Below are positions 2,518 through 44,093 of a stretch of DNA of 64,000 bases, piece by piece. The notes under the pieces are model-generated. The model saw nothing but the letters and a program-made list of their open reading frames with translations, did no database searches and had not been told where the DNA came from. The stretch is taken from the NCBI GenBank assembly GCA_964247135.1, contig CAXTTL010000001.1:37887-101886 (forward strand), in the 5' to 3' direction. The stretch's first letter is position 1. Each line of letters opens with the position of its first letter. The position numbers were made by a program, and so were the translations under genes. Origin of the DNA: an uncultured Deinococcales bacterium (lineage in GTDB: Bacteria; Deinococcota; Deinococci; Deinococcales; JAAFIG01).

Positions 2518-4056
2518 TCAAATCCCCCTCTTGAGGCTCTCGAGGTCGCCAACGACCTTGACGCGAATGCGGGTGGCGTTGCCGGGCAGGTAACTCAAGG
2601 GCACGTCTTCGATCTCGACGACCTCGAGCGAATCAGGTTTTGCCCCCGCAGCGACCGCCCGTTTCTTGGCTTCAATGGTGGCTTCCTCAAGCGCCGCCTC
2701 GCGGCTGATCTGCTCGAACAAATAGACTTTCTCGAGTTCGCCACTGACTTGTGCAATGGCAGCCCCAACCGCGTTGGCAGCCGCAAAATGATTTGGGCGG
2801 ATGGTCTCGAGGTCGCCCACTTTGCCGCGCACCAGTACCACGCCACCACCGACCAAAATCACTGGAATTGGGACGGCGGTCAAACGCACGCGGTCTACGG
2901 CGGCAAGAATTTTTGTTTGGATGGCGCTAACGGTGGCTTCGACCATGCTCGGCTCGAGCGTTGAAACCTTGCTCGAGTCGCCAATCTGCGCCAGTCCTGC
3001 CGCCACCGCAATGTCGGTGGCAGTCAGGGTTTGACCGCCGAACACCAAGGCTTGTTGCTCGAGTTGATAACCGACACTTTGCGGTCCGATTTCTGTGCCT
3101 TTGATAAGCGAGCCGCCCCCCAAACCGATGCTGTAAACATCGGGCATTCTGAAATTCGTGCGAACCCCGCCAACCTCGACCGCGACACCCGCCTGACGTG
3201 GGAAGCCTTGCACCAAAGCGCCAACGTCGGTGGTTGTGCCGCCAATGTCCACCACCACCGCTTCTTTGAGTTTGGATAAAAACGCCGCGCCGCGCATCGA
3301 GTTGGTTGGTCCGCTGGCAACCGTCAAAATCGGAAAGTTCTCGGCTCGAGCCGCAGGCATCAATGTGCCGTCGTTTTGGGTCAGAAAGAACGGGGCATCA
3401 ATGCCAGCTTGCTCGAGTGCATCGGCAAAAGCCTGCGCGATTTTCTTGCCCAAAGGTTGCAGCGCCGCATTCAAGATCGTGGCGTTTTCACGCTCGAGAA
3501 ACCCCACACGCCCGATAGTGTGTGACAAGGTGATTTTGGCATTGGAAACATGCTCGGCAATGATCTTGCCCGCTTGTTCCTCGAGGTCGTAATTGATGGG
3601 CGAGAATACCGAGGTGATCGCCACGCTGCTCAAACCCCTGGCGTTGATCTCCTGGGCGATGCTCGAGATTTCGTTTGGGTCAAAAATCGAAATTGGGCGA
3701 CCATCGAACTCGTTGCCGCCTTTGGCAAAAAACATGTGCTCGCCAATGCAAGCCTTTAAATCTTCAGACCAGGCGGTCATCGGCGGAATCGCCAAAGTCG
3801 CAGGTGCGCCAAGACGAATGATGGCGACCTGAGCCAGCTCGCGGCGTTGCACGATGGCATTGGTAAAATGCGTCGTGCCGATCATCACGGCATCCACGGC
3901 AGGCTTTGCGCCCTCGAACAAACTTCGCAGCGCCTCGAGCACCCCCGAGGTCACGTCCTGGGTGGTGGGGGTTTTGATGGTGCGGATGACATCAAAACCA
4001 TCCAGCAGCGCGGCATCGGTGTTGGTTCCGCCAACGTCTATCCCGACTCGAATCAT
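2518..4056 (-). CDS. Hydantoinase/oxoprolinase-family protein (HyuA-like, ASKHA fold), short form
   Basis: 512-aa ORF. The N-terminus MIRVGIDVGGTNTDAALL and a second phosphate loop VVVDIGGTTTDVG are typical of hydantoinase A/oxoprolinase-type ATPases. It is adjacent to and coupled with the DUF917 gene. Confidence 0.8.
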   Translation of the reverse strand: MIRVGIDVGGTNTDAALLDGFDVIRTIKTPTTQDVTSGVLEALRSLFEGAKPAVDAVMIGTTHFTNAIVQRRELAQVAIIRLGAPATLAIPPMTAWSEDLKACIGEHMFFAKGGNEFDGRPISIFDPNEISSIAQEINARGLSSVAITSVFSPINYDLEEQAGKIIAEHVSNAKITLSHTIGRVGFLERENATILNAALQPLGKKIAQAFADALEQAGIDAPFFLTQNDGTLMPAARAENFPILTVASGPTNSMRGAAFLSKLKEAVVVDIGGTTTDVGALVQGFPRQAGVAVEVGGVRTNFRMPDVYSIGLGGGSLIKGTEIGPQSVGYQLEQQALVFGGQTLTATDIAVAAGLAQIGDSSKVSTLEPSMVEATVSAIQTKILAAVDRVRLTAVPIPVILVGGGVVLVRGKVGDLETIRPNHFAAANAVGAAIAQVSGELEKVYLFEQISREAALEEATIEAKKRAVAAGAKPDSLEVVEIEDVPLSYLPGNATRIRVKVVGDLESLKRGI

Positions 4057-4766: not shown

Positions 4767-5156
4767 TTGAATGACACAACACTTGGTGAAACCGTGAAAG
4801 TCTTCCCACTCGAGTACCCCGAACGCCCACTGCAAGTCCTCGATCAACTCGAGCTGCCCGCCGAAGCCAGCGCTTCGTTAAGAATGGGCACCGCCAAAGT
4901 TCAAAAAGGCGATTGGATACCCCCAGCGGGATACTCGAGCCACGAGCAACACGAGGTTTCGGTGCTGTTAAAAGGACAACTCGAGATTGAGGTGGGCGGG
5001 CAAACCACCGCGCTCAAACACGGCGAGGTCGTGATGATTCCCGCCCTTGAAGCCCACCGTACCTACGCACTCGAGGATTCAGAACTGATCTGGTTCTGGT
5101 TTGGAAATGCCACAACAAGCGCCCCTGGCGCGAGCGGTAAAGGAGGAGCGGTATGA
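4767..5156 (+). CDS. Cupin domain protein (start uncertain)
   Basis: 129-aa ORF with a two-motif cupin pattern (HEQHEVSVLLKGQLEIEVGG ... GEVVMIPALEAHRTYAL). The track start is a TTG only 1-2 nt after AGGAGG, so the real start may be the internal GTG (~4794). Its stop overlaps the start of the next gene (ATGA). Confidence 0.55.
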   Translation: MNDTTLGETVKVFPLEYPERPLQVLDQLELPAEASASLRMGTAKVQKGDWIPPAGYSSHEQHEVSVLLKGQLEIEVGGQTTALKHGEVVMIPALEAHRTYALEDSELIWFWFGNATTSAPGASGKGGAV

Positions 5157-6766
5157 AGAAAGAACTGGTGGTTCTCGGGCTGTGCATGGTGGCGGCAGTC
5201 GGTATGGCGTTGACGCAATCTCTTGGACAAGGACAGCGCATCCTGCGGCTTGACAATGCCGCACCCGCCGAACTCGATCCGCACATTGGCAATGATTACT
5301 CGGCATCGGTGCTGGCGTACAACGTTTACGATACACTGGTGATGCCAGACCCAGACAACGGGGTGAAACCATCCGTTGCCACCAAATGGACCGTTTCCAA
5401 CGGCGGCAAACGTTTTACCTTCACCTTGCGTCCGAACGTTAAATTTCACGATGGCAGCACACTCGAGGCAAGCGATGTGGTTTTCAGTTACGAGCGCACC
5501 AAAGCCGTGGATCAGGGGTTTTCTTACCTCTTCCAAGGCTGGGTGACTGGCGTCAAAGCCGTCGGCAAAACGGTGGTGCAATTTGACCTTTCAGGCACGT
5601 ATGCACCCTTCCTCTCGACCTTGGTGCGCCTGCCCATCGTCAACAAAGACCTGGTGTTAAAGAACAAAAAAGACGGCAAGTTCGGCGCGAACGGCGATTA
5701 CGGACAAGCCTTCCTCTCGGGCAACGACGCGGGTTCGGGCGCATACCGCGTGACCCAACACAACCCGCAAACCCTGACGGTACTCGAGAAATTCAAAGAT
5801 TACTTCCTGGGCTTTAATCCCAAAGCCCCAGATGTCGTGCGCCAACTGTACAGCGTCGAATCTGCCACGATGCGCACCCTGATGGCACGCAAAGAACACG
5901 AAATCTCGAGCCAATGGCATCCGCAAGAAGTCCTCAAAGCCCTGGCAACTCAACCAGGCATCAGCCTGATTACCGAAGGCAGCGGCGGGTCGCTCATGTT
6001 TAAACTCAACACCCAACGCGCCCCAACCGACGACGTGAACTTCCGCAAAGCGATGGCGCTCGCCTTTGATTACAGCGAACTGGTTTCCGCATTAAAAGTC
6101 ACCGATAAAATCTCGGCAGGTGTTGCCGCTCGAGGTCCTATCGCCGCGAGCTTGCCAGGGTTTGATAAAGCTTTGGTCGCGCCAAAACGCAACTTGGATG
6201 CCGCCAAAGCCGCCCTCGCCAAATCCAAGTACGCCAACCAACTCGACAAAGCCGTGGTGGACATGGTTTGGGTCGCCGAAGCGCCGTTTGAAGAAAAAAT
6301 GGCGCTGTTGATGCAACAAAACCTGGGCGAGATTGGCATCAAAGTCAACCTCACCAAACTCCCCTGGGCAACACTCACCGAACGCTTCGTCAAAGCCGAC
6401 CAAACACCCAACACCTACCCGCTCTTCACCGGGCTTTCCTACCCAGACCCAGACGGACTCTTGTACGTGATGTACTCGAGCAAAGCCGCAGGCACCTTCT
6501 GGAGTTCGAGTTGGGTCAAAGATGCCGAGATCGACAAAGCCCTCGATGATGCCCGCCGGCTCAGCGACGTGAGCAAACGCATGGACTTGTACAAAAAAGT
6601 TCAAGAACGCCTGGTTGGAATGCAATCGGATATTTACGCCTACGACAACTTGGCGGTGTTCGCCAAACAAGATTACGTCAAAGTCCCGACGCTCGAGAAT
6701 GAAGGGCAGAGCGTGTCCACGATTGGGGCGAACTGGTTGTTCAGGTTGATTGAAGTCAACAACTGA
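5153..6766 (+). CDS. ABC transporter substrate-binding protein, family 5 (peptide/nickel/opine type)
   Basis: 537 aa with a signal peptide (MKKELVVLGLCMVAAVGMALTQS) and an AAGGAGGAG RBS. The family-5 SBP-like sequence reads LDPHIGNDYSASVLAYNVYDTLV ... FHDGSTLEASDVVFSYER. It is followed by Dpp-type permease and ATPase genes. Confidence 0.9.
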   Translation: MKKELVVLGLCMVAAVGMALTQSLGQGQRILRLDNAAPAELDPHIGNDYSASVLAYNVYDTLVMPDPDNGVKPSVATKWTVSNGGKRFTFTLRPNVKFHDGSTLEASDVVFSYERTKAVDQGFSYLFQGWVTGVKAVGKTVVQFDLSGTYAPFLSTLVRLPIVNKDLVLKNKKDGKFGANGDYGQAFLSGNDAGSGAYRVTQHNPQTLTVLEKFKDYFLGFNPKAPDVVRQLYSVESATMRTLMARKEHEISSQWHPQEVLKALATQPGISLITEGSGGSLMFKLNTQRAPTDDVNFRKAMALAFDYSELVSALKVTDKISAGVAARGPIAASLPGFDKALVAPKRNLDAAKAALAKSKYANQLDKAVVDMVWVAEAPFEEKMALLMQQNLGEIGIKVNLTKLPWATLTERFVKADQTPNTYPLFTGLSYPDPDGLLYVMYSSKAAGTFWSSSWVKDAEIDKALDDARRLSDVSKRMDLYKKVQERLVGMQSDIYAYDNLAVFAKQDYVKVPTLENEGQSVSTIGANWLFRLIEVNN

Positions 6767-6812
6767 TTGAAATGGGGTGGCTCGAGGGATTGGTTTCTCG
6801 AGCCACCTTTTG

Positions 6813-6876
6813 GGGGGCGGTGCGGTTATTGGTGGTGGGATTGTTGGCGGTGCGCTCGAGAGCGCACCCTACGGGG
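6813..6876. repeat. Left arm of RAYT unit (G/T-rich tract + REP hairpin GGTGCGCTCGAGAGCGCACC + CCTACGGGG tail)
   Basis: Read directly from the sequence. The 9-bp inverted repeat GGTGCGCTC/GAGCGCACC is centred at ~6859. The same hairpin recurs at 7743-7762, 9848-9867, 10094-10113, 13296-13315 and 13484-13503. Confidence 0.85.
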
Positions 6877-7116
6877 TGGGCGGGGCATGTGAATGGTTTT
6901 AATGTGGTTCATTCTGAATTAATAAATTGATCCCCAAAAAATACGCATACGACTCGAGATTCATGTATTCCTCGAGATTACGTCCGAGAGATTACAAAAT
7001 CACAGTTGAAGGTTTTGCTCGACTTGTAAATTTATGGATTTTCAAATTGATAAAAAAATCTATTTCGTTTCGTTCGCATTCATTCACAACGTATTACACA
7101 CATCGACCAGTCACCT

Positions 7117-7656
7117 TCATCCCACAAATTTCTCTTCAACCCTCAAACCCTCGCGCCAATCTTCTGGGTATACCCCTTGCGAAACACACCGATGAAACGT
7201 ACTCCACTCCCAATCCCTGACCTTCGAGACCAACCCATGCTTGACCGGGTTGTAATGAACGTAATCCATGCAGCGTTCAAAATTGGCATCATCCCGAACT
7301 TGATGCTCCCAAAACCGCCTCTGCCAAATGCTCGTTTCGCGTCGCGCCACCCGAGACGCGCTCAACCTCGAGTCGTTCCTGATTTCTGGCAGGGCTTTGC
7401 TGCACAATTGCTTGATCATGTTCCAACGCAAGCTGAAATTGGTGTCATCTTCGGGCAGTGTCCAAATGGTGTGCAGGTGGTCGGGCAGCAACACCCAAGC
7501 ATCAATCGTGAACGGATGATGGCTTCGGGTGCGCGTCACCGCCTCGCGCAGCGCTGCCCGAAATGCAGGCTCGAGCAAAATGGGTTGCCGTTGATGCGTG
7601 ACCACCGTGAAAAAAAACGTGCCGCCAGGGGCATTGGCGCGGCGATAATTCGGCAT
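7117..7656 (-). CDS. rayT: REP-associated tyrosine transposase (RAYT; Y1 HUH transposase, IS200/IS605 superfamily)
   Basis: The N-terminus [23 protein letters not shown] is RAYT-typical. The HUH motif is [10 protein letters not shown] and the catalytic Tyr block is [13 protein letters not shown] preferred the start at 7656 over the track start 7707. REP hairpins flank the gene in inverted orientation. Confidence 0.85.
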
Positions 7657-7733
7657 GGCTCGAGTATAAGATTTTGGGATGTTCGTGCATGTGATATATC
7701 CGCACACCGATTTCCCGCAATTTTATCCCGATC

Positions 7734-7798
7734 CCCCGTAGGGTGCGCTCTCGAGCGCACCGCCAACAATCCCACCACCAATAACCACACCGCCCCCC
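7734..7798. repeat. Right arm of RAYT unit (inverted copy of 6813-6876)
   Basis: The sequence is CCCCGTAGGGTGCGCTCTCGAGCGCACCGCCAACAATCCCACCACCAATAACCACACCGCCCCCC. It is the reverse complement of the left arm except for one position (A vs G in ...AATAACC[A/G]CACC...). Confidence 0.85.
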
Positions 7799-7892
7799 AT
7801 CTCGAGCACACCCCCAAAACATCCAATTTCCACATGTTCCCACGCTTTCAAGACCGTCAATCACCCGCATCCCCCATTCAGGTACACCCCTG

Positions 7893-8924
7893 ATGCTCAC
7901 CTTCCTGACCTACATCGCCCGTCGCCTGTTCTCCTCCATTGTCGTGCTCATCGGCGTTTCAATCCTGGTTTTCGTGATCGCTCGAGTCATCCCTGGCGAC
8001 CCCGCCCGCATCGCCCTTGGTCCAATGGCATCACAAGAATCCATCAAGAATTTGCGCTTCGAGTTGTACCTGGATCGCCCTTTGCCTTTGCAGTACCTCG
8101 AGTTTGTGCGGCGTTTACTCAAGGGTGATCTTGGCACGAGTTTGTACACGCGGCGCGCGGTCACGGCAGACCTCGAGCAGTTTTTCCCAGCCACCCTCGA
8201 GTTGGTACTGGCGAGTGGTTTGTTGATGGTGGTGTTTGGTTTGCCTTTGGGGGTGCTGGCGGCGCGGTATCGCAATCGCTTGCCCGACAACGTGGCTCGA
8301 GTCTTTGCGATTCTTGGGGTGGTCACCCCCAATTTTGTCTGGGCAATTTTTTTGATCTTGATGTTTGCCTATTGGGTGGCGATTCTGCCCGTGGCTGGGC
8401 AACAATCGGATACGTTTTTGCTGCCGAAGAAAATCACAGGTTTTTTGATGCTTGATTCGATTTTGACGGGGCAATGGGCAATGTTCTGGGATGCGCTGAG
8501 GCATTTGATCTTGCCTGCGGCGGCGCTGGCGTTTGCGGGTTTGGGGCAGACCGCACGCCTGACTCGAGCGAACATGCTCGATTCTTACGGCAAGCCTTAC
8601 ATCGAGATGGCTCGAGCTTTTGGCATCAGTGAACTCGAGATTGCCACCAAGTACGCGCTGCGTCCCGCACTCATTCCGACGCTGACCATTTTAGGGCTTG
8701 ATTTTGCCGCGATGCTTGGCGGGGCGTTTTTGGTCGAGGCGGTCTTCAACTGGCCCGGCATGGCGCGTTACGCCGTGCAAGCGATTTTGCACAAAGACCT
8801 GAACGCGATTGTCGGCACGACCCTGGTGATCGCGGTGTTCTTTTTACTGGTCAACATCGTGGTGGATTTGATCGTTGGTTACGTCAACCCTCGGATTCGT
8901 TTTCACGAGGAGGCTCGAGGATGA
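7893..8924 (+). CDS. ABC transporter permease (DppB/OppB-like)
   Basis: 343 aa and multi-TM. The N-terminus MLTFLTYIARRLFSSIVVLIGVSILVFVIARVIPGDP is typical of DppB-type permeases. Its stop overlaps the next permease start (8921). Confidence 0.9.
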   Translation: MLTFLTYIARRLFSSIVVLIGVSILVFVIARVIPGDPARIALGPMASQESIKNLRFELYLDRPLPLQYLEFVRRLLKGDLGTSLYTRRAVTADLEQFFPATLELVLASGLLMVVFGLPLGVLAARYRNRLPDNVARVFAILGVVTPNFVWAIFLILMFAYWVAILPVAGQQSDTFLLPKKITGFLMLDSILTGQWAMFWDALRHLILPAAALAFAGLGQTARLTRANMLDSYGKPYIEMARAFGISELEIATKYALRPALIPTLTILGLDFAAMLGGAFLVEAVFNWPGMARYAVQAILHKDLNAIVGTTLVIAVFFLLVNIVVDLIVGYVNPRIRFHEEARG

Positions 8925-9781
8925 CACTTTCTCCTGCCAGAATCTTTCGCTCGAGGTCTTGGTATCGCTTTTCACAAAACCCGCTGTCAGTGATCGGTTT
9001 GGGCATTGTGGTGTTGGTGGTGCTGCTGGCGATTCTTGCGCCGATCATCACGCCCTACCCGAAGCACGCGGGGCAGTTTGTGAATTTCAGTGCGGGCACT
9101 GCCGCACCGACATGGCAGTATTTGTTTGGCACGGACACCATTGGGCGTGATGTTTTGACGCGCATCATTTTTGGCTTGCGGGTCTCGCTCGCGCTTGGCG
9201 TGGTGGTCTTGGCATTGGCTGTGCCCATTGGTGTGATTCTGGGTTTGATGGCGGGTTATTTTGGGCGGCACGTCGAACTGGTCATCATGCGAATCACCGA
9301 TGTTTTTCTGGCATTGCCACCTTTGGTGCTGGCGTTGGCGGTCTTGGGGTTTCTGGAGCCAAATTTGTTTAACGCCATGATGGCGGTGACCGTGATGTGG
9401 TGGCCATGGTACACGCGATTGGTCTACAACCTCTCCCGTTCAATCCGCACCGAGGGTTTTGTCACCGCCAGCGAGGTGATGGGCGCCTCGAGATTCCATA
9501 TTTTGTTCCGCGAGATTCTGCCGAATTGCCTGCCCTCGATCTTGACCAAAATGACGCTCGACATGGGCTTTGTGATTCTGATTGGCGCGAGTTTGTCGTT
9601 TCTGGGCTTGGGTGTCCAACCGCCCACCCCAGACCTCGGTTCGATGGTCGCCGACGGCGCAAAATACCTGCCCGATGCCTGGTGGATTTCGGTCTTTCCT
9701 GGACTGGCGGTCTTGTTCTGCGTGCTCGGTTTTAATTTGCTCGGTGATGGCTTGCGCGATCTTTTGGACGTGGAGGTATGA
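8921..9781 (+). CDS. ABC transporter permease (DppC/OppC-like)
   Basis: 286 aa. The sequence reads LFGTDTIGRDVLTRIIFGLRVSL ... LPNCLPSILTKMTLDMGFVILIGASLSFLGLGVQPPTPDLG, with an EAA-type loop region. Confidence 0.9.
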   Translation: MTLSPARIFRSRSWYRFSQNPLSVIGLGIVVLVVLLAILAPIITPYPKHAGQFVNFSAGTAAPTWQYLFGTDTIGRDVLTRIIFGLRVSLALGVVVLALAVPIGVILGLMAGYFGRHVELVIMRITDVFLALPPLVLALAVLGFLEPNLFNAMMAVTVMWWPWYTRLVYNLSRSIRTEGFVTASEVMGASRFHILFREILPNCLPSILTKMTLDMGFVILIGASLSFLGLGVQPPTPDLGSMVADGAKYLPDAWWISVFPGLAVLFCVLGFNLLGDGLRDLLDVEV

Positions 9782-9835
9782 ACCACGATTTTGCCGTGTT
9801 GTGGGTTGTACAGTGCAATGTATGGCGAACCGTTC

Positions 9836-10122
9836 GGTGCGCTGTAGGGTGCGCTCAAGAGCGCACCGCATTGACACCCCATCCCTCGAGATTAAAACCC
9901 GCAACCCATGATTTTGTTATTACCAAAATTAACGTTTATATCATTCGTTTCTCGAGATTGAAAAACATTGCTGGTGGTTTTTTTGTTGCCAAAATGAATG
10001 TTTGCACAATGTGTTTCTCGAGATTCAAAAACATTTTTTGTGGTTTTTTTGATGGGTTGGGGTGGTGCGCTCGGGGTTGGTGGGTTTGTGGGCGGTGCGC
10101 TCGAGAGCGCACCCTACGGGTG
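9836..10122. mobile_element. REPIN/MITE-like non-autonomous element A (two inverted REP hairpins enclosing ~2.5 AT-rich tandem modules)
   Basis: The terminal hairpins are 9848-9867 (GGTGCGCTCAAGAGCGCACC) and 10094-10113 (GGTGCGCTCGAGAGCGCACC), in opposite orientation. The right arm carries a G/T-rich tract like the RAYT arms. Internal tandem modules at 9916-9984 and 9985-10050 are ~66-69 bp and ~75-80% identical by eye, each with TTTCTCGAGATT[G/C]AAAAACATT. The element lies between permease 2 and ATPase 1. Confidence 0.75.
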
Positions 10123-10130
10123 AATTATTT

Positions 10131-11105
10131 ATGACAACGCCTCTCTTAAAAATCACCGATCTCCATTTGCGATTTAAACTCTTCGAGGGGGTTTCGCACG
10201 TGCTGGCGGGGGTCAACCTCGAGGTGCATCGCGGGGAACGGGTTGCGATTGTGGGCGAGTCGGGTTGCGGGAAATCTGTGACGTTGCGTTTGATTTTGGG
10301 TTTGTTGCGCGGCAAGAACATCATGGTTTCGGGCACAATCGAATTTGATGACCTCGAGATCAATGCTGCCAGCGATCAGAAATTGCGTGAGATTCGTGGG
10401 CGGCGCATTGGTACGATTTTTCAAGACCCAATGGCTTCGCTCAATCCAACCTTTACGATTCTCGATCAGATGGGTGCGGTGATCCGACGTGGAGAGCCGA
10501 AAATTTCTCGAGTTGCTTTGCTCGAGAAAGCAAAGCACGCGCTTTCTCAGGTGGCGATCAATGATCCTTTGCGAGTGCTCGAGGCGTATCCGTTTCAACT
10601 TTCGGGCGGCTTAAATCAGCGCGTCTTGATTGCGATGGCGCTGCTCAACGAACCCGAGTTGGTACTGGCGGACGAACCAGGCACGGCGCTCGATGTCACG
10701 GTGCAAGAGCAAACCTTGCGTTTGATGCGAGAATTGACGCAGAACCTGAATTCGGCGGTGCTCTTGATTACCCACAACCTCGGCGTGGTGCGCGAGTTTG
10801 CGGATCGGGTCTATGTGATGTACGCCGGCAGCGTGGTCGAGGAAGCCAGAACCACTGAACTCTTCGCCAATCCCAAGCATCCGTACACGCGGGCGTTGCT
10901 CGAGAGTGTGCCGAAATTGACGGGCACCAATTTGCCGCAGGGGATCGATGGTTTTGTGCCCGATTACACCAAGCCTCCTTTGGGTTGTCGCTTTCATCCG
11001 CGTTGCGCTCAGGCGACCCAAGCCTGCCAGACCTTGCCGCCTTTGCTCGAGGTGGCGCAAGGTCACAAGGTTGCCTGTGTGCTTTACGAGGGGGCGGCTG
11101 CATGA
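10131..11105 (+). CDS. ABC transporter ATP-binding protein (DppD/OppD-like)
   Basis: Walker A is GESGCGKS, the signature is LSGGLNQRV, Walker B is LVLADEPGTALD, and the oligopeptide-type C-terminal region is HPYTRALLESVP. The start is at ATG 10131 (MTTPLLKITDL). The longer track ORF from 10062 reads through the REP hairpin. Confidence 0.9.
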   Translation: MTTPLLKITDLHLRFKLFEGVSHVLAGVNLEVHRGERVAIVGESGCGKSVTLRLILGLLRGKNIMVSGTIEFDDLEINAASDQKLREIRGRRIGTIFQDPMASLNPTFTILDQMGAVIRRGEPKISRVALLEKAKHALSQVAINDPLRVLEAYPFQLSGGLNQRVLIAMALLNEPELVLADEPGTALDVTVQEQTLRLMRELTQNLNSAVLLITHNLGVVREFADRVYVMYAGSVVEEARTTELFANPKHPYTRALLESVPKLTGTNLPQGIDGFVPDYTKPPLGCRFHPRCAQATQACQTLPPLLEVAQGHKVACVLYEGAAA

Positions 11106-12082
11106 CCGAGCCGTTGTTGCGTGCCACCAACCTCGCCAAGCATTACAAGACCCGTGCCAGCACCGTTAGGGCGCTTGATGGGGTCAACCTCGAGGTGTTT
11201 GAAGGTGAAACCCTGGCGGTGGTCGGCGAATCGGGTTCGGGCAAGACCACGCTGGCAAACCTGATCTTGGGCATCGAAGCGCCAAGCATGGGTGAACTGG
11301 TGTTCCGTGGCACGGCGTTGACCGCCAAACGCACGCTCGAGTTGAGGCGACGCATTCAGTACGTGCAACAAAATCCGATGACCACGCTCAACCCACGCCG
11401 CACGGTGTTTCAGAGCATCAGTCTGGCACTCGAGACGCATAAGTTGCGACCCCGTGCCGAGCGGCGTGCTCGGGTGGCAGAGTTGCTCGAGGTGGTGGGC
11501 ATGAGTGTCGAGAACCTGGATCGGTTTCCGAATGCGCTCTCGGGTGGGCAGCGTCAACGCGTGGCAATTGCTCGAGCGCTGGCGGCAGAACCGCAATTGT
11601 TGGTGCTCGACGAGCCGACCTCGGCGCTGGATGTCAGCGTGCAAGCCAAAGTGTTGACCCTGTTGGTCGAACTGCAAGCAAAATTTAAGCTCACCTACTT
11701 GTTCATCACGCACGATCTGGGTGTGGTTCGCAATGTGGCAAACCGTGTGGCGGTGATGTATCGCGGCAAAAACGTCGAGCTTGGACCCACGCCCGAATTG
11801 TTCCGCGACCCTGAACATCCGTACACCCGCATGTTGATCTCCTCGATTCCGGTGGTCAGCCTCGAGGAAGAACAACTGAAACCTGTCTGGGCGTGGGATC
11901 GCAACCTGGTGCTCTCGAGCGAAATGACCTCGAGTGGCTGCGGTTTTGCGCCGCGTTGCCCGTATGCCGAAGATGCTTGCCGCACTCAAATACCAGCACT
12001 CTCGAGCGTTCGCAGCGATCATCTGGCGGCGTGTCACATGGTCTCGGGCGTGATGAAGCAAAAAATGAATCAAGGAGGCTAG
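11102..12082 (+). CDS. ABC transporter ATP-binding protein (DppF/OppF-like)
   Basis: Walker A is GESGSGKT, the signature is LSGGQRQRV and Walker B is LLVLDEPTSALD; the C-terminal region reads HPYTRMLISSIP. ATG 11102 overlaps the upstream stop (ATGA). The track start 10985 lies inside the upstream gene. Confidence 0.9.
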   Translation: MTEPLLRATNLAKHYKTRASTVRALDGVNLEVFEGETLAVVGESGSGKTTLANLILGIEAPSMGELVFRGTALTAKRTLELRRRIQYVQQNPMTTLNPRRTVFQSISLALETHKLRPRAERRARVAELLEVVGMSVENLDRFPNALSGGQRQRVAIARALAAEPQLLVLDEPTSALDVSVQAKVLTLLVELQAKFKLTYLFITHDLGVVRNVANRVAVMYRGKNVELGPTPELFRDPEHPYTRMLISSIPVVSLEEEQLKPVWAWDRNLVLSSEMTSSGCGFAPRCPYAEDACRTQIPALSSVRSDHLAACHMVSGVMKQKMNQGG

Positions 12083-12083
12083 G

Positions 12084-13253
12084 ATGCTCAAAGCAAAACT
12101 CGGTGAGGTTCAAGCGTATTTGCGCGAGGCAAAGCTTGACGGTTGGTTGCTGTTCGATTTTCGGGGCATGAACCCCTTCGTCAAACGTGTTCTGAGTCTC
12201 GAGGGCAAGGGCTTGTTGACGCGGCGTTGGTTTGTCTGGATTCCCGCACAGGGCGACCCGAGCGTCACAGTTCACGCCATCGAGCACGGTTCTTTTCCCG
12301 AAACCGGTTTTGCCACCTCGAGTTACTCGAGTCGCAGCGACCTGAGCGAAAAATTGCGAGAAACGCTTGGCAATGCCAAACGCATCGTCATGGAATACTC
12401 GCCGCAAAACAACAACCCGTATGTTTCCAAGGTGGATGCTGGCACAGTCGAACTCGTGCGTGGCTTGGGTGTTGAAGTTTTCAGTTCTGGCGACATCCTG
12501 CAATTGTTTTTGGCATGGAGCGACACGCAACTCGAGAACCACAGAAAAGCCTCTCAAGCCCTCACCGAAACCAAAGATGCGGCGCTCGGTTTGATCCGCG
12601 AACATGCCTCGAGCCAAAAACCGCTAACCGAATACGAGTTGCAATCGTTCATGTGCCGTCAGATGGAACAACGCGGCATGATTTACGACCACGCGCCAAT
12701 CGTCTGCTTTGGACGAACCTCCAACGACCCGCATTACACCCCGTCTGAAACGCATTCCAACCCGCTCGAGCCTGGGGCAATTTTGATGGATTTGTTCTGT
12801 CAAACCTCCAAAAACGATCCCTTTGCAGACATCACCTGGATGGCGCACCTTGGCACACCCTCTGCCGAATTCATGCGTGCGTTTGATCGCGTCACCGCCT
12901 CTCGAGATGCAGGTGTGAATTTTCTGCGTTCAAGGCTCGAGGCGGGCAATGACGTTCAAGGCTTTGAAGTCGATCAGGTTGTGCGTCAAGTTTTGATTGA
13001 CGCAGGTTACGAAAAATATTTGTTGCACCGCACCGGTCACAGCCTCGGCTGCACTGCCGTGCATGGCGATGTCGCGCATTTTGACGGCATCGAAACCCTC
13101 GACGAACGCCGTGTTTTGCCGCGCCTTGGCTTCACCATCGAACCAGGCGTCTACCTGCCCGAATTTGGTGTGCGCAGCGAAATCAATGTGTACAGCCTCG
13201 AGCGTGGTCTCGAGATCACCACCGCCATTCAACACGCATTGGACGTGATTTGA
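12084..13253 (+). CDS. M24 family metallopeptidase (Xaa-Pro aminopeptidase/creatinase-like)
   Basis: 389 aa. Pita-bread fold metal-ligand context is present: DITWMAHLG, HRTGHSLG, EPGVYLPEFGVRSEINV. The gene starts 1 nt after the ATPase stop. Confidence 0.8.
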   Translation: MLKAKLGEVQAYLREAKLDGWLLFDFRGMNPFVKRVLSLEGKGLLTRRWFVWIPAQGDPSVTVHAIEHGSFPETGFATSSYSSRSDLSEKLRETLGNAKRIVMEYSPQNNNPYVSKVDAGTVELVRGLGVEVFSSGDILQLFLAWSDTQLENHRKASQALTETKDAALGLIREHASSQKPLTEYELQSFMCRQMEQRGMIYDHAPIVCFGRTSNDPHYTPSETHSNPLEPGAILMDLFCQTSKNDPFADITWMAHLGTPSAEFMRAFDRVTASRDAGVNFLRSRLEAGNDVQGFEVDQVVRQVLIDAGYEKYLLHRTGHSLGCTAVHGDVAHFDGIETLDERRVLPRLGFTIEPGVYLPEFGVRSEINVYSLERGLEITTAIQHALDVI

Positions 13254-13287
13254 TGTTTCAAACCACCCCCGCGATGTTCCAAACAAC

Positions 13288-13507
13288 ACCCGTAGGGTGC
13301 GCTCTCGAGCGCACCGCCCACAAACCCACCCATCTCGAGCGCACCCCCACACCCCCCAACCCCAACAAAAAAATCACACAAAATGCTTTTGAACCTCGAG
13401 AAACGAATGATGTAAATGTTGTGTTTGGCAACAAAAAAATCATGGGCAATGCTTTTGAACCTCGAGCAATGTGATGCCAATGTGGTGCGCTCAAGAGCGC
13501 ACCCTAC
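13288..13507. mobile_element. REPIN/MITE-like non-autonomous element B (inverted copy of the element A family)
   Basis: The terminal hairpins are 13296-13315 (GGTGCGCTCTCGAGCGCACC) and 13484-13503 (GGTGCGCTCAAGAGCGCACC). The C-rich arm is CCGCCCACAAACCCACCC...CCCCCCAACCCC. Internal modules read AAAAAAATCA..AATGCTTTTGAACCTCGAG (x2). The sequence aligns to the reverse complement of element A. The element lies between the M24 peptidase and hyuA. Confidence 0.75.
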
Positions 13508-13562
13508 TACAATTTTTTGCAATTAAAATTTCGCATCAATTTAATACCATCAGGAGGAATCC

Positions 13563-15665
13563 ATGCCGCAATCACCCCGAATTCGCGCCGCCACCGACGT
13601 CGGTGGAACCTTCACCGACTTGGTGTATTTCCGCACCGACCCCAAAACCGGTCGGCAAGAAATCGTCACCGCCAAGTCCGACACCACCCCGCCCGATTTT
13701 GAACGCGGTGTGATGAACGTGATCCACAAAGCCAATCTGCCAATGGAAGAAATCGCGTTTCTCGCGCACGGCACAACCGTTGTCATCAACGCCTTGACCG
13801 AACGCAAAGGCGTCAAAACCGCTTTGATTACCACGAGCGGTTTTCGGGATTCGATTGAAATTGCTCGAGGCAACCGCCCCGATTTTTTCAATTTGTTTTA
13901 CCAGAAACCCGAGCCTTTTGTGCCGCGTTTTTTGCGTCAAGAAGTGCCTGGGCGCATGTCGCCGCAAGGTTTGGAGCGCGAGGCACTTGACTTGTCGGGT
14001 TTGCCTGCCATCTTGAAGGCGTTCAAAAAAGAGGGTGTTCAAGCGGTGGCAATTTGCCTGCTGCATTCTTACGCCAACCCTGCCCACGAGCAAGCCGTGC
14101 TCGAGCGGGTGCATGAGTTGTGGGCGGATGTGGCGGTGGTCGCGTCGCATCAGATCACCCGCGAGTGGCGCGAGTACGAGCGCACCAATACCACAGTGCT
14201 TTCGGCGTATGTGCAACCGATTGCCGAGCGTTACCTCTCGAGGTTGCAGGCGGGCGCGGAGGCTGAGGGTTTTGCTGGGCAGATGTACATCATGCAGTCC
14301 AATTGCGGGGTGGATTCGCTCGAGCATACGCGTGAAATTCCAATCACGATGGTTGAGTCTGGTCCTGCCAGTGGGGTTTGGGGCGCGGCGGAGCTTGGAC
14401 GTTTGTTGAACGAACCAAACGTCTTGGCGCTGGACATTGGTGGTACGACCGCGAAGTGTTCCTTGATCGAAAATGGTCGGGTGCGGGTACAGACCGATTA
14501 CTGGATTGAACGCACGCATCAGTCGGCGGGTTATCCGATTCAAGTGCCTGTGCTCGACATCGTGGAGATCGGGCAGGGCGGTGGCAGCATCGCCTGGGTG
14601 GACGAGTTTGCCAAGTTGCACGTCGGTCCCAAATCGGCAGGGGCGCAACCAGGTCCTGCCGCCTATGGGCGCGGCGGCACAAATGCCACGACCACCGACG
14701 CAAACCTGGCGCTCGGGCGCATCAACCAGCATTATTTTTGCGGTGGCGAAATCAAAGCCGACATGAAAGCCGTGGGCAGTTCGCTGGATGCCGTCGCCAA
14801 GCAATTGAAGGTTTCTCGGCTCGAGGCGGCTCGAGGGATTGTGCGCTTGGCAAACCACAACATGGTCAATGCTTTAAAACTTGTCTCGGTCAACCGTGGT
14901 CACGACCCCAGGGATTTTACGTTGGTCGCCTTCGGTGGTGGCGGCGCGATGCACGCGGTGGCACTCGCGCAAGAACTGGGCATCAAAAAGGTCGTGATTC
15001 CTCGAGCCGCCGATGTGTTTAGCGCTTGGGGCATGATGATGAGCGACTTGCGGCGCGATTTTTTCATCACCAAACTCGCCAGCTTAAAAGCCGAAAATGC
15101 CGCCGCGCTCGAGGCACTGGTGCGCGAGACCAGCGACAATGCGCTGGCACAATTCAAGCTCGAGGGCATCAAAGCCAGTCAGGTCAGTTTTATTCGTTAT
15201 GCCAAGCTTCGTTACGAAAATCAGGAACATACCGTCGAAATTGCGCTGCCCGATGCGAAAATCAGTGCCAAAACGATTCCTGCAATCATCGAAGATTTTC
15301 ATGCCTCGTATGAGCGCGAGTACACCTATCGCCTGAACGCTCCCGTCGAATTCGTGGGCTTGCATCTGGTGGCTTCTGCCGAGGTGGGCAAGCTCGAGCC
15401 GATTACGTTGCCGTGCAGCAAACGCAAACTCGAAGCGGCGCATAAAGGGACGCGCCAGGTGGATTACGCGCTCGAGGGCGTTCACATTGCCGATATTTAC
15501 GATGGCGATCTGCTCGAGCCTGGCATGAAATTTGTTGGACCTGCGATCATTGAAACCAGCGGCACGACGATGGTGATTCATCCTGGCAATCAGGTGCGGA
15601 TGGATGACTATGGTCATGTTCACATCACGGTCACGGCGGCAGTGACCAAAGGAGGTCGCAAATGA
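13563..15665 (+). CDS. hyuA: Hydantoinase/oxoprolinase A subunit (N-methylhydantoinase A / acetone carboxylase beta-like)
   Basis: 700 aa with an AGGAGGAAT RBS. The sequence contains RIRAATDVGGTFTDLV and ALDIGGTTAKCS and has a long C-terminal domain. It is directly followed by and overlaps hyuB. Confidence 0.85.
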   Translation: MPQSPRIRAATDVGGTFTDLVYFRTDPKTGRQEIVTAKSDTTPPDFERGVMNVIHKANLPMEEIAFLAHGTTVVINALTERKGVKTALITTSGFRDSIEIARGNRPDFFNLFYQKPEPFVPRFLRQEVPGRMSPQGLEREALDLSGLPAILKAFKKEGVQAVAICLLHSYANPAHEQAVLERVHELWADVAVVASHQITREWREYERTNTTVLSAYVQPIAERYLSRLQAGAEAEGFAGQMYIMQSNCGVDSLEHTREIPITMVESGPASGVWGAAELGRLLNEPNVLALDIGGTTAKCSLIENGRVRVQTDYWIERTHQSAGYPIQVPVLDIVEIGQGGGSIAWVDEFAKLHVGPKSAGAQPGPAAYGRGGTNATTTDANLALGRINQHYFCGGEIKADMKAVGSSLDAVAKQLKVSRLEAARGIVRLANHNMVNALKLVSVNRGHDPRDFTLVAFGGGGAMHAVALAQELGIKKVVIPRAADVFSAWGMMMSDLRRDFFITKLASLKAENAAALEALVRETSDNALAQFKLEGIKASQVSFIRYAKLRYENQEHTVEIALPDAKISAKTIPAIIEDFHASYEREYTYRLNAPVEFVGLHLVASAEVGKLEPITLPCSKRKLEAAHKGTRQVDYALEGVHIADIYDGDLLEPGMKFVGPAIIETSGTTMVIHPGNQVRMDDYGHVHITVTAAVTKGGRK

Positions 15666-17341
15666 AAGCCAAAACCAAAAAAACCAGCACTTCAAAATTT
15701 GACCCGATCACGCTCGAGATCATTCAAAATTCCTTGCAAGCCATCAGCGACGAGATGTTCGCCGCGATGCGAAAAACCGCCATGAGCGCGATCATTTACG
15801 AGGTGCTCGACATGGGCACGGGCATCACGGACTTTGAGGGCAACCTGGCGGCATCGGGCGCGGGTATTCCAGCCTTTGTGGGTGTGCTCGACAAAGCCGT
15901 GCAAAAAATTCTCGAGCTGAACCCTCGAGCCGACATTCACCCAGGGGATGTGTTCATCACCAACGACCCGTACTTTGGTGGGGTCACGCACCTGAATGAC
16001 GGGGTGTTGGCGATGCCAGTTTTTGTTGGCAACCAGATCATTGCCTGGACGGCGAACATCGCGCACTGGCCCGATGTCGGCGGTCTGGTGGCGGGTTCGA
16101 TGTCCAACGATGCCAAAGAGATTTTTCAGGAAGGTTTGCGCTTGCCCGCCATCAAACTGATTGACCGTGGAGTGCCGATCAAAAGCGTCATGGAGATCAT
16201 CAAAACCAACAGCCGACTGCCAGACTTTTTGCAGGGCGACCTCTGGGCGGGCATCGCGGCGGTGCGGGTGGGCAACAAGCGCTTGCTCGAGTTGGTCGAA
16301 AAATACGGGCAGGATACCTTCGTGGCGGGCATGAAGCACTTTATGGATTACGGCGAGGCGATCTCGAGAAAGGCGCTCAAGTCATTGCCCAAAGGCACGT
16401 TTACACTTTCTGAAGAGCAGGACAGCGGTGTGGTGTACAGCGCCACCATCACGATCACTGACAGCGAATTTAAGGTAGATTTGCGTAACAACCCAGACCA
16501 GGACGCGGGACCAAACAACTCCTGCCGTGACGGGGCGATGATCGCCGCACAGATGATCTTTAAAAACCTGACCGACCCGCACGGGGTGGCGAACGGTGGC
16601 ACGTTCCGCCCGCTCAACCTCATCACGCGTAAGGGCAGTGTGTTTGATGCCAACCCACCAGCCGCATTTGCCATTTATTACGAGGTCGAGGTGCGCCTGT
16701 ACGACCTGCTCTGGCGTTGCCTCGCGCCGCACATGGAAGGTCGCTTGCCTGCGGGTAACTTCTCCTCGATTTTGGGCACGATTGTTTACGGCAAACACCC
16801 CGACACCGGACGCTTTTTCACCATCATCGAACCACAAATCGGTGGCTGGGGCGGCTCGAGCATACGTGATGGCAACAGCGGCATTTTCTGCGGTTTTCAT
16901 GGCGAAACCTACAACTGTCCCGTCGAAATTGCCGAAACGCGGTACGGCTTGTATGTCGATCAACTCAGCCTCAACCTCGAGCCTGGTGGCGAGGGTCAAT
17001 TCCGTGGCGGCAAAGGCATTGTGCTCGATTACCGTGTGCGTTCGGACAACACCTTTTTAACGGCTTCGTACACCAGAAACATTCACAAACCCTGGGCGCT
17101 GGACGGTGGGCGTGAGGGTTCACCGAATTACATCGAGATCATCCGAAGTGACGGCAGGCGCGAGAAGCACGCCGTCTTGACGGGCTTGTTGCTCAACAAA
17201 GACGATGTGATTCGGGTGATTACCGCCAACGGTGCGGGTTTTGGCGATCCGAAAAAACGCAGCCCCGAGGCGGTGTTCGAGGACATCAAAAACGGTTTGA
17301 TTACCCCGAAACGTGCCAAGGAGGTTTACGGTCAAGGCTGA
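15662..17341 (+). CDS. hyuB: Hydantoinase B/oxoprolinase family protein
   Basis: 559 aa. The sequences DPITLEIIQNSLQAISDEMFAAMRKTAMSAIIYEVLD and ITNDPYFGGVTHLND are typical of HyuB. Its start overlaps the hyuA stop (ATGA). Confidence 0.85.
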   Translation: MKAKTKKTSTSKFDPITLEIIQNSLQAISDEMFAAMRKTAMSAIIYEVLDMGTGITDFEGNLAASGAGIPAFVGVLDKAVQKILELNPRADIHPGDVFITNDPYFGGVTHLNDGVLAMPVFVGNQIIAWTANIAHWPDVGGLVAGSMSNDAKEIFQEGLRLPAIKLIDRGVPIKSVMEIIKTNSRLPDFLQGDLWAGIAAVRVGNKRLLELVEKYGQDTFVAGMKHFMDYGEAISRKALKSLPKGTFTLSEEQDSGVVYSATITITDSEFKVDLRNNPDQDAGPNNSCRDGAMIAAQMIFKNLTDPHGVANGGTFRPLNLITRKGSVFDANPPAAFAIYYEVEVRLYDLLWRCLAPHMEGRLPAGNFSSILGTIVYGKHPDTGRFFTIIEPQIGGWGGSSIRDGNSGIFCGFHGETYNCPVEIAETRYGLYVDQLSLNLEPGGEGQFRGGKGIVLDYRVRSDNTFLTASYTRNIHKPWALDGGREGSPNYIEIIRSDGRREKHAVLTGLLLNKDDVIRVITANGAGFGDPKKRSPEAVFEDIKNGLITPKRAKEVYGQG

Positions 17342-38542: not shown

Positions 38543-38607
38543 AGTTTTTCACCAGCACATCACCGAGACGTTCAGCATGGAATTAGACACTGCTCGAGTT
38601 CGGGTAG

Positions 38608-38624
38608 GGTGCGCCATGCGCACC
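38608..38624. repeat. REP-variant hairpin (GGTGCGC-CAT-GCGCACC) with CGGGTAG prefix
   Basis: It lies 66 nt after the stop of the giant gene. The stem is the same as in the RAYT-associated REPs but the loop is shorter. Confidence 0.55.
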
Positions 38625-38854
38625 ATCCAATACGCGCAATTGGAGCGCTACGAATTTTTCAAGCTTGGAATGTTTTGGTTCATTGGTCGAGGTCAACATA
38701 CTTTTTAGGGTTCTCGGTTGAACTGAGTTGAAACCAACAAGATCAGGCACGGTCGCTCGAGGGTTTGATAGCCCTCGAGCGGATGGAGTACGGCTTTTCT
38801 CTCAAGCAAATCTCAAAGCTCGAGCAACATATTTCTCGAGCATCAGGAGAACAT

Positions 38855-44007: not shown

Positions 44008-44067
44008 GTTGTGACTCCTTTTGAGGTTGGGATTGAATTTTTGTTTTCGTTGTGTGGGTTTCTTGCG

Positions 44068-44093
44068 TAGGGGCGCATGGCTGTGCGCCCCTA
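44068..44093. repeat. GC-rich 10-bp-stem hairpin (TAGGGGCGCA-TGGCTG-TGCGCCCCTA), REP-like variant
   Basis: It lies between the upstream MDR dehydrogenase and the SDR gene. It shares the GTAGGG[G/T]GCGC core with the REP family but has a different stem register. Confidence 0.45.

Follow-up and report, generated by a model that had tools for sequence, protein, structure and literature searches.

The intergenic element B (13292-13507) of an uncultured Deinococcales-like lineage is, judged from its sequence, a REP doublet that resembles a REPIN and carries an unusually long, repeat-filled spacer. It very probably belongs to the family of a REP-associated tyrosine transposase (RAYT) encoded nearby, and the short direct repeat at its edge is most likely a later, local tandem duplication and no insertion scar. 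We describe the element within the whole stretch of DNA that was analysed, 64 kb long and called the window below, and compare it with the corresponding loci of relatives, which are designated by L numbers.

Element B consists of two inverted GTAG-type REP hairpins at its ends and, between them, a spacer of 168 nt made up of a C-rich arm and two tandem modules of 66 bp (Table 1). It is located between two genes of the same strand, with which it is probably co-transcribed, and starts 38 nt past the stop codon of the M24 peptidase gene. The preliminary description let the element begin at 13288, which adds the four letters ACCC in front of the GTAG; the GTAG feet themselves are at 13292 on the forward strand and at 13507 on the reverse strand, the latter being the end given before. 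The C-rich arm recurs in element A, where it is G-rich on the forward strand, and in both flanks of the RAYT gene.

Table 1. Coordinates of element B, its neighbours and related features in the window
Feature	Position	Strand	Description
Left RAYT-flanking unit	6811..6876	+	G-rich arm and REP; inverted partner of 7734-7799, 66 nt, 98% complementary
RAYT gene	7117..7656	-	179 aa; motifs DHLH, WE, YVHYNP
Right RAYT-flanking unit	7734..7799	+	REP and C-rich arm
Element A	9844..10117	-	B-type composite in opposite orientation, three modules
M24 peptidase gene	12084..13253	+	Upstream neighbour of B
Duplication copy 1	13252..13272	+	GATGTTTCAAACCACCCCCGC; kept as copy 1 in L001, L002, L031, L033
Duplication copy 2	13273..13293	+	GATGTTCCAAACAACACCCGT; finishes with the CACCC foot plus GT from the GTAG
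Left REP of B	13292..13315	+	GTAG, then hairpin GGTGCGCTC-TC-GAGCGCACC; CTCGAG in loop region
C-rich arm of B	13316..13362	+	Holds half-REP CTCGAGCGCACCC at 13334-13346
Module 1 of B	13363..13428	+	66 bp, CAACAAAAAAATCA..AATGCTTTTGAACCTCGAG..
Module 2 of B	13429..13483	+	55 nt, truncated by right REP
Right REP of B	13484..13507	-	Inverted, GTAGGGTGCGCTCTTGAGCGCACC on the minus strand
Hydantoinase/oxoprolinase A gene	13563..15665	+	Downstream neighbour of B; AGGAGG 6 nt before ATG

The hairpin GGTGCGCTCNNGAGCGCACC is found six times in the window, against 0.00 times expected from shuffled sequences, and all six copies are intergenic and lie between 6849 and 13503. Its stem is a perfect 9 bp (GGTGCGCTC / GAGCGCACC), and the whole is a GC-rich palindrome within the 20-40 nt that define a REP. 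Each copy has a 5' GTAG at its foot (GTAGGGTGCGCTC..GAGCGCACC at 13292 on the forward and 13507 on the reverse strand, and also at 6872, 7738, 9844, and 10117), and in A, in B, and in the RAYT unit alike the feet of the two ends face outward. REP variants retain the pairing through changes on both sides of the stem, for example GGCGCGCTC..GAGCGCGCC in L012. The same REP is found at 15 loci in the Deinococcales MAG JANOWZ01, all exact matches, and at two in JAYURE01; there the REPs mostly form compact doublets of about 60 bp with a spacer of 12-13 nt. A shortened variant was also seen at 38604 in the window, outside the gene cluster. Inspection by eye of the A/T-rich part of the modules gave no convincing match to an IHF-type site such as that of E. 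coli BIME-1.

The gene at 7117-7656 encodes a predicted RAYT, a Y1/HUH enzyme acting on single-stranded DNA. It scores 197.4 bits against the NCBIfam model NF047646 (cut-off 80) and aligns over residues 1-168 with E. coli TnpArep in the PDB (4ER8, E = 5e-41), HLH being opposite HMH and YVHYNP opposite YIYINP in the HUH motif and tyrosine regions; the score against Pfam Y1_Tnp, 21.8 bits, is slightly under the cut-off of 23. The gene is located 5.6 kb upstream of B, antisense, between inverted REP arms of 66 nt. In L028, L029, and L030, syntenic orthologues (91, 80, and 77% identity) occupy the same antisense place, with the SBP_bac_5 gene on one side and the permease gene on the other, and are likewise flanked by REPs. 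The nearest RAYTs from named organisms are betaproteobacterial (about 60% identity). Known RAYTs are single-copy, vertically inherited, and REP-flanked (PMC5581495; PMC6006769). The E. coli enzyme TnpA_REP, the only one for which REP binding and cleavage in single-stranded DNA have been shown, requires the 5' GTAG and cleaves CT dinucleotides on both sides of the hairpin (PMC3479197). The matches to NF047646 and 4ER8 support the conclusion that A, B, and the arms around 7117-7656 form one REP family with its cognate RAYT.

The gene cluster at 5153-17341 has only three intergenic gaps: 6767-7892, with the RAYT and its arms, 9782-10130, with A, and 13254-13562, with B. The preliminary description saw three members of one family in three gaps of a single operon of about 12 kb. 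REP material is indeed present in all three, but a single operon is doubtful, as a terminator-like hairpin followed by TTTT comes after the binding-protein gene (6776-6811) and the RAYT gene is antisense. REP doublets are also found in the A gap of L009, L029, and L030 and in the B gap of L007/L009, L031, and L002. A metagenome scan queried with the M24 protein brought up nothing but distant loci, of 33-61% identity. Because the position of the RAYT is kept in L028-L030 and doublets occur in the same gaps of relatives, a long residence of REP/RAYT material in these gaps has support from these comparisons. This shared occupancy holds at the level of the gap and not of the nucleotide: the REP at site A begins 14, 62, or 98 nt past the stop codon depending on the relative, and independent insertions into the same gaps in different relatives are therefore possible. 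Of the two causes suggested in the preliminary description, preferential insertion into operon spacers and retention for a regulatory structure, each is compatible with these data.

B had been described as an inverted and shorter copy of A with one module fewer, and this was borne out. A repeat search paired 9844-9988 with 13363-13507 (145 nt, 78% complementary) and 10054-10122 with 13287-13355 (69 nt, 91% complementary), and in a MAFFT alignment B and the reverse complement of A aligned from hairpin to hairpin, thus also outside the hairpins. The sole large gap, of about 60 nt, corresponds to one 66-bp module absent from B (two modules against three). A has a spacer of 226 nt and ends 13 nt short of 10131, where the first ATPase gene probably has its ATG. 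When the interiors of A, of B, and of the relatives' elements were compared by BLAST with all the loci analysed, the 66-bp modules were found in A and B only, and no relation to the 24-bp arrays of L031 and L002 emerged. The composite is thus known from two copies, A and B, that are 78-91% alike.

As the same composite stands inverted at site A, it would have been copied between the two gaps, either by RAYT-mediated mobilisation or by gene conversion with the REPs serving as homology. The modules of A and B differ by about 22%; recent direct copying between A and B is therefore not established, and both may derive from other copies of the composite elsewhere in the genome. One alternative is that the likeness reflects ongoing gene conversion between resident doublets 3.2 kb apart, with no transposition of the composite as a unit. 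We regard this as possible, if somewhat less than an even prospect: doublets are already present at both gaps in relatives, the REP and arm reach 91-95% identity as against 78% for the modules, and the 98% complementarity of the RAYT flanks over 66 nt suggests homogenisation, but the opposite orientation of A and B makes simple conversion harder, though possible, and the tract boundaries give it no support.

Another reading concerns the transcript. B might be retained mainly as functional RNA, its stem-loop between the two cistrons either protecting the mRNA upstream or attenuating the read-through that reaches hyuA/hyuB; as an adjunct to this, the 21-bp duplication at its edge would have been favoured for shifting the hairpin from 17 to 38 nt from the stop codon. 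Translation is depressed when a REP follows a stop codon by no more than about 15 nt, and in E. coli REPs stabilise the upstream mRNA, as in malE-malF. Like the malE-malF stem-loops, the REP hairpins described here separate genes in an ABC-transport cluster, shortly past the stop codons, and their predicted RNA stems are very stable; unlike there, close relatives have no such element or one with a different interior. The B gap is predicted to fold at -84.1 kcal/mol (z = -5.2), its terminal REPs pairing in both the minimum-energy and the centroid structure, and the A gap at -146.4 kcal/mol (z = -8.2), again with the terminal REPs paired together. By analogy, such a long REP-REP stem, standing between the genes for the peptidase and the hydantoinase, would most plausibly serve as a barrier to 3' exonucleases or attenuate weakly.

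This very stable predicted stem speaks for a functional RNA, as do the doublets in the same two gaps of relatives whose flanking genes are 22-25% divergent at the nucleotide level and the T-run found behind the right REP both in the window and in L031. The TTTTTT, however, begins 5 nt past the stem of the right REP, and not immediately after it as the U-tract of an intrinsic terminator does. A terminator scan of 6600-13700 found none of canonical form in B and a total of 11, against 10.7 from shuffles, and a promoter scan likewise gave nothing over the shuffle expectation. A search of 6500-14000 against Rfam 15 matched no family, the lone sub-threshold hit being P10 (20.6 bits against a gathering threshold of 37), outside B. 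In addition, the interior is unconserved among close relatives. Any function of B is dispensable, because the gap of L032 is 48 nt without the element and that of L001 has a REP singlet only. We therefore think it unlikely that B is retained mainly in this way, although such a role is compatible with, and not exclusive of, the explanation of B as a REP doublet.

At the edge of B, a 19-mer repeated with 16 of 19 positions matching had been reported, its first copy overlapping the stop codon of the M24 peptidase gene; both points were confirmed, the TGA being at 13251-13253. The repeat is better described as a tandem of 21 bp (GATGTTTCAAACCACCCCCGC / GATGTTCCAAACAACACCCGT) with 17 of 21 positions matching, and Tandem Repeats Finder (TRF) places it at 13252-13292 with period 21, 2.0 copies, and 85% matches. 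It is the only tandem with at least 16 of 19 matches at offsets 19-30 in the 64 kb, where block shuffles yield 0.1. The two copies are adjacent and both are 5' of B, and the unit extends from the M24 stop codon to the GTAG foot. As it contains the CACCC and the GT of the REP foot, the 21-bp unit spans the element junction; the same CACCC precedes GTAG in A and in B, with CCCC as its equivalent in both RAYT flanks.

Among relatives, the pair recurs in L031, L002, and L033, which have interiors unlike that of the window, and in L001, where it is followed by a single REP hairpin only; copy 2 of the window and copy 1 of L001 (GATGTTTCAAACAACACCCGT) are identical at 20 of 21 positions. In L007 the B site holds a REP doublet and a single spacer, without the duplication, and in a tree of the M24 gene L007 falls outside the duplication-carrying clade. 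No copy of the 21-mer or 19-mer was recognisable in the REP-free gaps of L032 and L008. Across 53 distinct 5' flanks of REPs that were scored, a tandem abutting the REP from outside was found at this orthologous site only.

These data bear on the suggestion of the preliminary description that the repeat is a footprint of insertion, that is, a target-site duplication made by B or by the first REP. The duplication is statistically real, directly adjoins the element, and is seen only where a REP occupies the site, L032 and L008 having neither. Yet both copies are on one side of B with nothing inserted between them, the unit spans the junction, and the pair accompanies a REP singlet in L001 and unrelated interiors in L031 and L002 while being absent from the doublet-bearing L007. 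Its distribution corresponds to a single event in one clade, with nothing similar at other REP flanks among the 53. Y1/HUH transposition of the IS200/IS605 type is not known to make target duplications. A short direct repeat bordering a small repeat recalls the target-site duplications of MITEs and DDE-type insertion sequences, but here both copies are on one side, the unit overlaps the foot of the element, and only one locus is concerned; DDE-type duplications are also typically short, and 21 bp is longer. We therefore consider a footprint very improbable. It had further been proposed that orthologous sites without the insert be searched for both 19-mers: taken literally, the REP-free gaps contain neither, but the spirit of that comparison is answered by L001, which has nothing of the A/B-type composite past one REP hairpin and nonetheless carries both. 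As for a purely fortuitous origin of the A/B likeness and the edge repeat, in a genome full of CTCGAG and of low-complexity, C-rich stretches, CTCGAG does occur 385 times in the window (21 times expectation), the loop of the REP and each of the modules included, and the 21-mers are A- and C-rich, but a hairpin expected 0.00 times, A/B alignments over 145 and 69 nt, a yield of 0.1 tandems per 64 kb in composition-preserving block shuffles, and conservation of the duplication in four relatives refute it and leave it a negligible chance. We found nothing in the literature on CTCGAG as an iterated palindrome.

The local tandem duplication that we favour would have arisen once, with the REP already present, in the common ancestor of the window and the four relatives, each 21-bp copy having decayed independently since. 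Its geometry suggests slippage or mis-repair beside a strong hairpin as the likeliest cause. Cleavage by the RAYT at the duplication junction was considered and rejected, as the junction is not CT, the dinucleotide cleaved by E. coli TnpA_REP. The same process may have filled the doublets of one relative or another with tandem modules, of 9/18, 24, or 66 bp, and the canonical compact doublet would in this way have grown to the 168-nt spacer of B. The arrays inside the orthologous doublets are of 66 bp in the window, of 24 bp (3.5 copies) in L031, and of 9/18 bp and 24 bp in L002, and the contents of the B gap range from a singlet through compact doublets to module-filled doublets among genomes whose adjacent gene is 83-87% identical. 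We only tentatively propose, and would not presume, that REP doublets are nurseries of fast-turnover tandem repeats in this lineage. If so, local duplications would be actively induced by the hairpins of the REPs or by the RAYT as it nicks and rejoins the DNA, and composites of the A/B type could then be copied into further REP-occupied gaps.

Among the closest known systems is the REPIN-RAYT system of Pseudomonas fluorescens SBW25 (Bertels and Rainey, 2011, PMC3116915; PMC5581495). In both, a pair of inverted REPs folds into a single long hairpin, the RAYT, with these REPs on either side, is vertically inherited at a fixed locus, and intergenic elements persist in the same gaps across related species. 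Unlike those REPINs, the elements described here have spacers of 168 nt (B) and 226 nt (A) with tandem 66-bp modules, and the host is not a proteobacterium but of an uncultured Deinococcales-like lineage. The 5' GTAG and GC-rich hairpin are shared with the E. coli REP/BIME elements and the TnpA_REP REPtron (Ton-Hoang, 2012; Messing, 2012, PMC3479197; 4ER8), in which a RAYT homologous to the present one is also surrounded by inverted REPs, and the alternation of REP orientation with other repeated motifs in between makes both BIMEs and the present composites mosaic. However, neither the REP nor the internal motifs share sequence with the E. coli elements, and the stem, a perfect palindrome of 9 bp, shows no obvious bulge. 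Outward GTAG and a location near or overlapping stop codons are features of the GTAG-tagged REP superfamily (Di Nocera et al., 2013, PMC3733652), whose survey does not mention Deinococcus or Thermus; the family described here is thus from a lineage that it did not cover.

Although no new mechanism or function is demonstrated, these results add a REP/RAYT system, of a kind already known, from an uncultured Deinococcales-like lineage. They also provide a worked example in which an apparent target duplication beside a REP could be dated and dismissed by means of relatives, and this locus could serve for studying how REP doublets grow.

The region between the M24 peptidase and hydantoinase A genes, 309 nt long, is occupied by element B, whose parts are listed in the table below. 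The preliminary description had presented B as an inverted, shorter copy of element A, which is correct, except that we place the start of the element at the GTAG at 13292. In a MAFFT alignment, B and reverse-complemented A match from terminal hairpin to terminal hairpin, with one large gap corresponding to one 66-bp module, and a repeat search paired 9844-9988 with 13363-13507 (145 nt, 78%) and 10054-10122 with 13287-13355 (69 nt, 91%). There are three modules in A, where TRF detected the 66-bp array, and two in B. There are six copies of the hairpin core GGTGCGCTCNNGAGCGCACC in the window (0.00 expected), always within 6849-13503. A C-rich arm beside the REP (the GTAG-footed hairpin repeat) is common to A, B and both flanks of the REP-associated tyrosine transposase (RAYT) gene. 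Because the interior of A and B is lineage-specific and common to both, we infer that the composite was copied between the two gaps, via mobilisation or conversion.

Coordinates of element B, its neighbours, element A and the RAYT gene
Feature	Position	Strand	Remark
RAYT ORF, 179 aa	7117-7656	-	NCBIfam NF047646 + PDB 4ER8
Element A	9844-10117		Gap A (permease to ATPase), 274 bp
M24 peptidase gene	12084-13253		Upstream neighbour of B
Tandem 21-mer pair	13252-13293		
Left REP	13292-13315		GTAGGGTGCGCTCTCGAGCGCACC
C-rich arm	13316-13362		Half-REP inside
66-bp module 1 of B	13363-13428		
Module 2 of B	13429-13483		Truncated to 55 nt
Right REP, inverted	13484-13507	-	GTAGGGTGCGCTCTTGAGCGCACC on minus strand
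Hydantoinase A gene	13563-15665		Downstream neighbour of B

Elsewhere in the window, two other intergenic hairpins have a GTAG foot: GTAGGGTGCGCCATGCGCACC (38604-38625) is a shortened form of the REP of A and B, and GTAGGGGCGCATGGCTGTGCGCCCC (44067-44091), distinct in sequence, may represent a different REP family or the stem of a terminator. For the first ATPase gene, the start called mechanically, GTG at 10062, falls within element A; the start is likely ATG 10131, as in the related locus L001, 13 nt past the REP and with no clear Shine-Dalgarno besides GGGTG.

The assignment to a REP/RAYT family was confirmed. The RAYT matches NF047646 (REP-associated tyrosine transposase; 197 bits, cut-off 80) and the E. 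coli TnpArep structure 4ER8 (E = 5e-41), with HLH matched to HMH and YVHYNP to YIYINP. Its motifs DHLH, WE and YVHYNP are similar to those listed for subclass 2.2 (PMC6006769), a likeness of motifs rather than a formal classification. Inverted REP-plus-arm units of 66 nt, 98% complementary, flank the gene (6811-6876 and 7734-7799), an arrangement known as the REPtron or REPIN-RAYT (PMC5581495, PMC6006769, PMC3479197). The exact REP pattern was found at 15 loci in the Deinococcales bacterium MAG JANOWZ01, at two in JAYURE01 and as single matches in a few other MAGs. The closest RAYTs with an organism name are betaproteobacterial (about 60% identity), and the named homologues of the M24 peptidase (53-62% identity) come from Thermaceae, Meiothermus and Trueperaceae.

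In three related loci, L028 (91% RAYT identity), L029 (80%) and L030 (77%), the RAYT gene separates the SBP_bac_5 gene from the first permease gene, in antisense orientation and flanked by REPs on either side wherever the contig extends far enough. Nucleotide identity to the window is only 74-75% for the permease genes of L029 and L030, indicating that this position is old. In L029, a true IS200/IS605-family transposase (3283-3795, minus strand of the locus; NF033573, 157 bits) directly adjoins the RAYT, near a REP-like hairpin (3806-3829); this transposase and the RAYT, both Y1 proteins, share only 21% identity.

The other two gaps are occupied in relatives as well. Gap A holds a compact doublet in L029 and L030 and a 160-bp doublet with an unrelated interior in L009, from JANOWZ01. 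As the usual form in JANOWZ01, L029 and L030 is the compact doublet, which measures about 60 bp and has a spacer of 12-13 nt, A and B represent expanded versions of it. No REP was seen in gap A of L028 and L001, present as contig ends only (L028:1-148, L001:1-232). In these closest relatives reaching the gap, the sequence by the permease stop or ATPase start shows no relationship to element A and has its own direct repeat, CTTCTTGACCATAAAATGCACCT in two copies, and a GC-rich hairpin. Gap B, between M24 and hyuA, contains a doublet of about 130 bp in L007 (= L009), a doublet with 3.5 24-bp modules in L031, one with 9/18-bp C-rich repeats and 2.7 24-bp modules in L002, a REP and C-rich arm before the contig end in L033, and one REP in L001. 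The neighbour-joining M24 tree, with L008 as outgroup, is (((window, L031, (L033, L002)), (L032, L001)), L007). REP material in the same gaps of lineages 22-25% divergent in flanking genes argues for long residence and supports retention of the elements there, an occupancy shared at the level of the gap and not of the nucleotide, as the distance from stop codon to REP varies. The doublet interior turns over fast and is sometimes lost. The cluster is rearranged in JANOWZ01, where a gene resembling, by eye, a short-chain dehydrogenase (L009:1-700) stands upstream of the permease genes in place of the binding-protein gene and RAYT; gaps A and B keep their REP doublets there despite this.

The direct duplication at the edge of B, described earlier as a 19-mer (16/19 matching positions), is real. 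The pair GATGTTTCAAACCACCCCCGC / GATGTTCCAAACAACACCCGT matches at 17 of 21 positions, forms a period-21 array of 2.0 copies (TRF) and is the only tandem of such quality in the 64 kb; shuffles preserving local composition yield 0.1 per window. L031, L002, L033 and L001 have this pair in the corresponding position, and each of the copies has decayed independently; copy 1 of L001 (GATGTTTCAAACAACACCCGT) has one difference from copy 2 of the window. The ancestral 21-bp unit began at the stop codon's T and extended to the G (or GT) of the GTAG foot. It contains CACCC, also found 5' of GTAG in A, with CCCC there in the RAYT flanks.

Its interpretation as an insertion footprint was rejected. A target duplication brackets the insert, whereas both 21-mers lie on one side of B; the unit extends into the element's own foot, and the pair is independent of what comes after the first REP. 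Outside the duplication clade, L007 has the doublet without the pair, after a single 23-nt spacer, and no other tandem abuts a REP from outside among 53 distinct REP 5' flanks. Y1/HUH enzymes of the IS200/IS605-RAYT kind are not known to duplicate their target on insertion, which also argues against a footprint. E. coli TnpA_REP is known to cut at CT dinucleotides (PMC3479197), and the junction of the pair is not at one. Both 21-mer and REP are absent from the M24-hyuA gaps of L032 and L008. Among close relatives, only L032, sister to L001, lacks a REP in this gap (48 nt; L032:1300-1388); the 3' terminus of its M24 gene encodes LQTKLDVL, as in the outgroup, instead of the IQH(A/E)LDVI of the rest of the clade, although the gene taken whole clusters with L001. 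This pattern suggests that recombination replaced the end of the gene together with the gap, and points to allelic replacement, not to an empty site that was preserved. The simplest reading of the edge pair is one slippage-type duplication next to a strong hairpin, with the REP already present. Since tandem arrays of 9/18, 24 and 66 bp recur within these doublets (window, L031, L002), a common local cause is plausible.

The family was also said to occupy three gaps of one operon. REP material is indeed present in each intergenic gap of the cluster 5153-17341, three in all, and the 64 kb has no full-length REP outside these gaps. For two extra loci to lie no more than about 6 kb from the RAYT, the rough post hoc probability is (12/64)^2 = 0.035, and clustering near the RAYT is suggestive only. 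A single operon is not established, because the RAYT is antisense and a terminator-like hairpin (6776-6811) follows the binding-protein gene. This hairpin, just before the RAYT-flanking arm, comprises two CTCGAG sites (GGTGGCTCGAG..CTCGAGCCACC), then TTTT; it was not listed by the terminator scan and suggests that the binding-protein gene terminates its own transcript.

CTCGAG is itself the commonest hexamer of the window, by a twofold margin, with 385 occurrences (6.0 per kb) against 18 expected from base composition, a ratio of 21. Densities are 5.3-7.6 per kb in relatives and about 3 per kb in more distant ones (loci including L001, L009, L014, L022 and L028-L030), and almost nil in Chloroflexia and Massilia loci (0 and 0.4 per kb). 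In the eight plus-strand genes of the cluster, 36 of 39 Leu-Glu dipeptides are encoded as CTCGAG, and the other two codon phases hold 13 each; density is higher still in the cluster's non-coding gaps (12.9 per kb). This excess resembles the cyanobacterial HIP1 iterated palindrome, and we found no description of CTCGAG as such in the literature.

At the DNA level, B would be either the RAYT's passenger or its partner; E. coli TnpA_REP binds GTAG-plus-hairpin ends and requires them for cleavage (PMC3479197). B is probably co-transcribed with its two same-strand flanking genes. The terminal REPs pair with each other in the predicted fold of gap B, which reaches -84.1 kcal/mol (z = -5.2); the fold predicted for gap A reaches -146.4 kcal/mol (z = -8.2). 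A T6 run begins 5 nt beyond the stem of B, in which the terminator scan detected no canonical terminator and Rfam no family match. By analogy with what is known of REPs in E. coli, a role of B in RNA as an exonuclease barrier or weak attenuator is plausible. Any such role is evidently dispensable, given that L032 has no REP and L001 a single one. The REP/RAYT system of this bacterium is a further case of an already known kind, and of modest interest.
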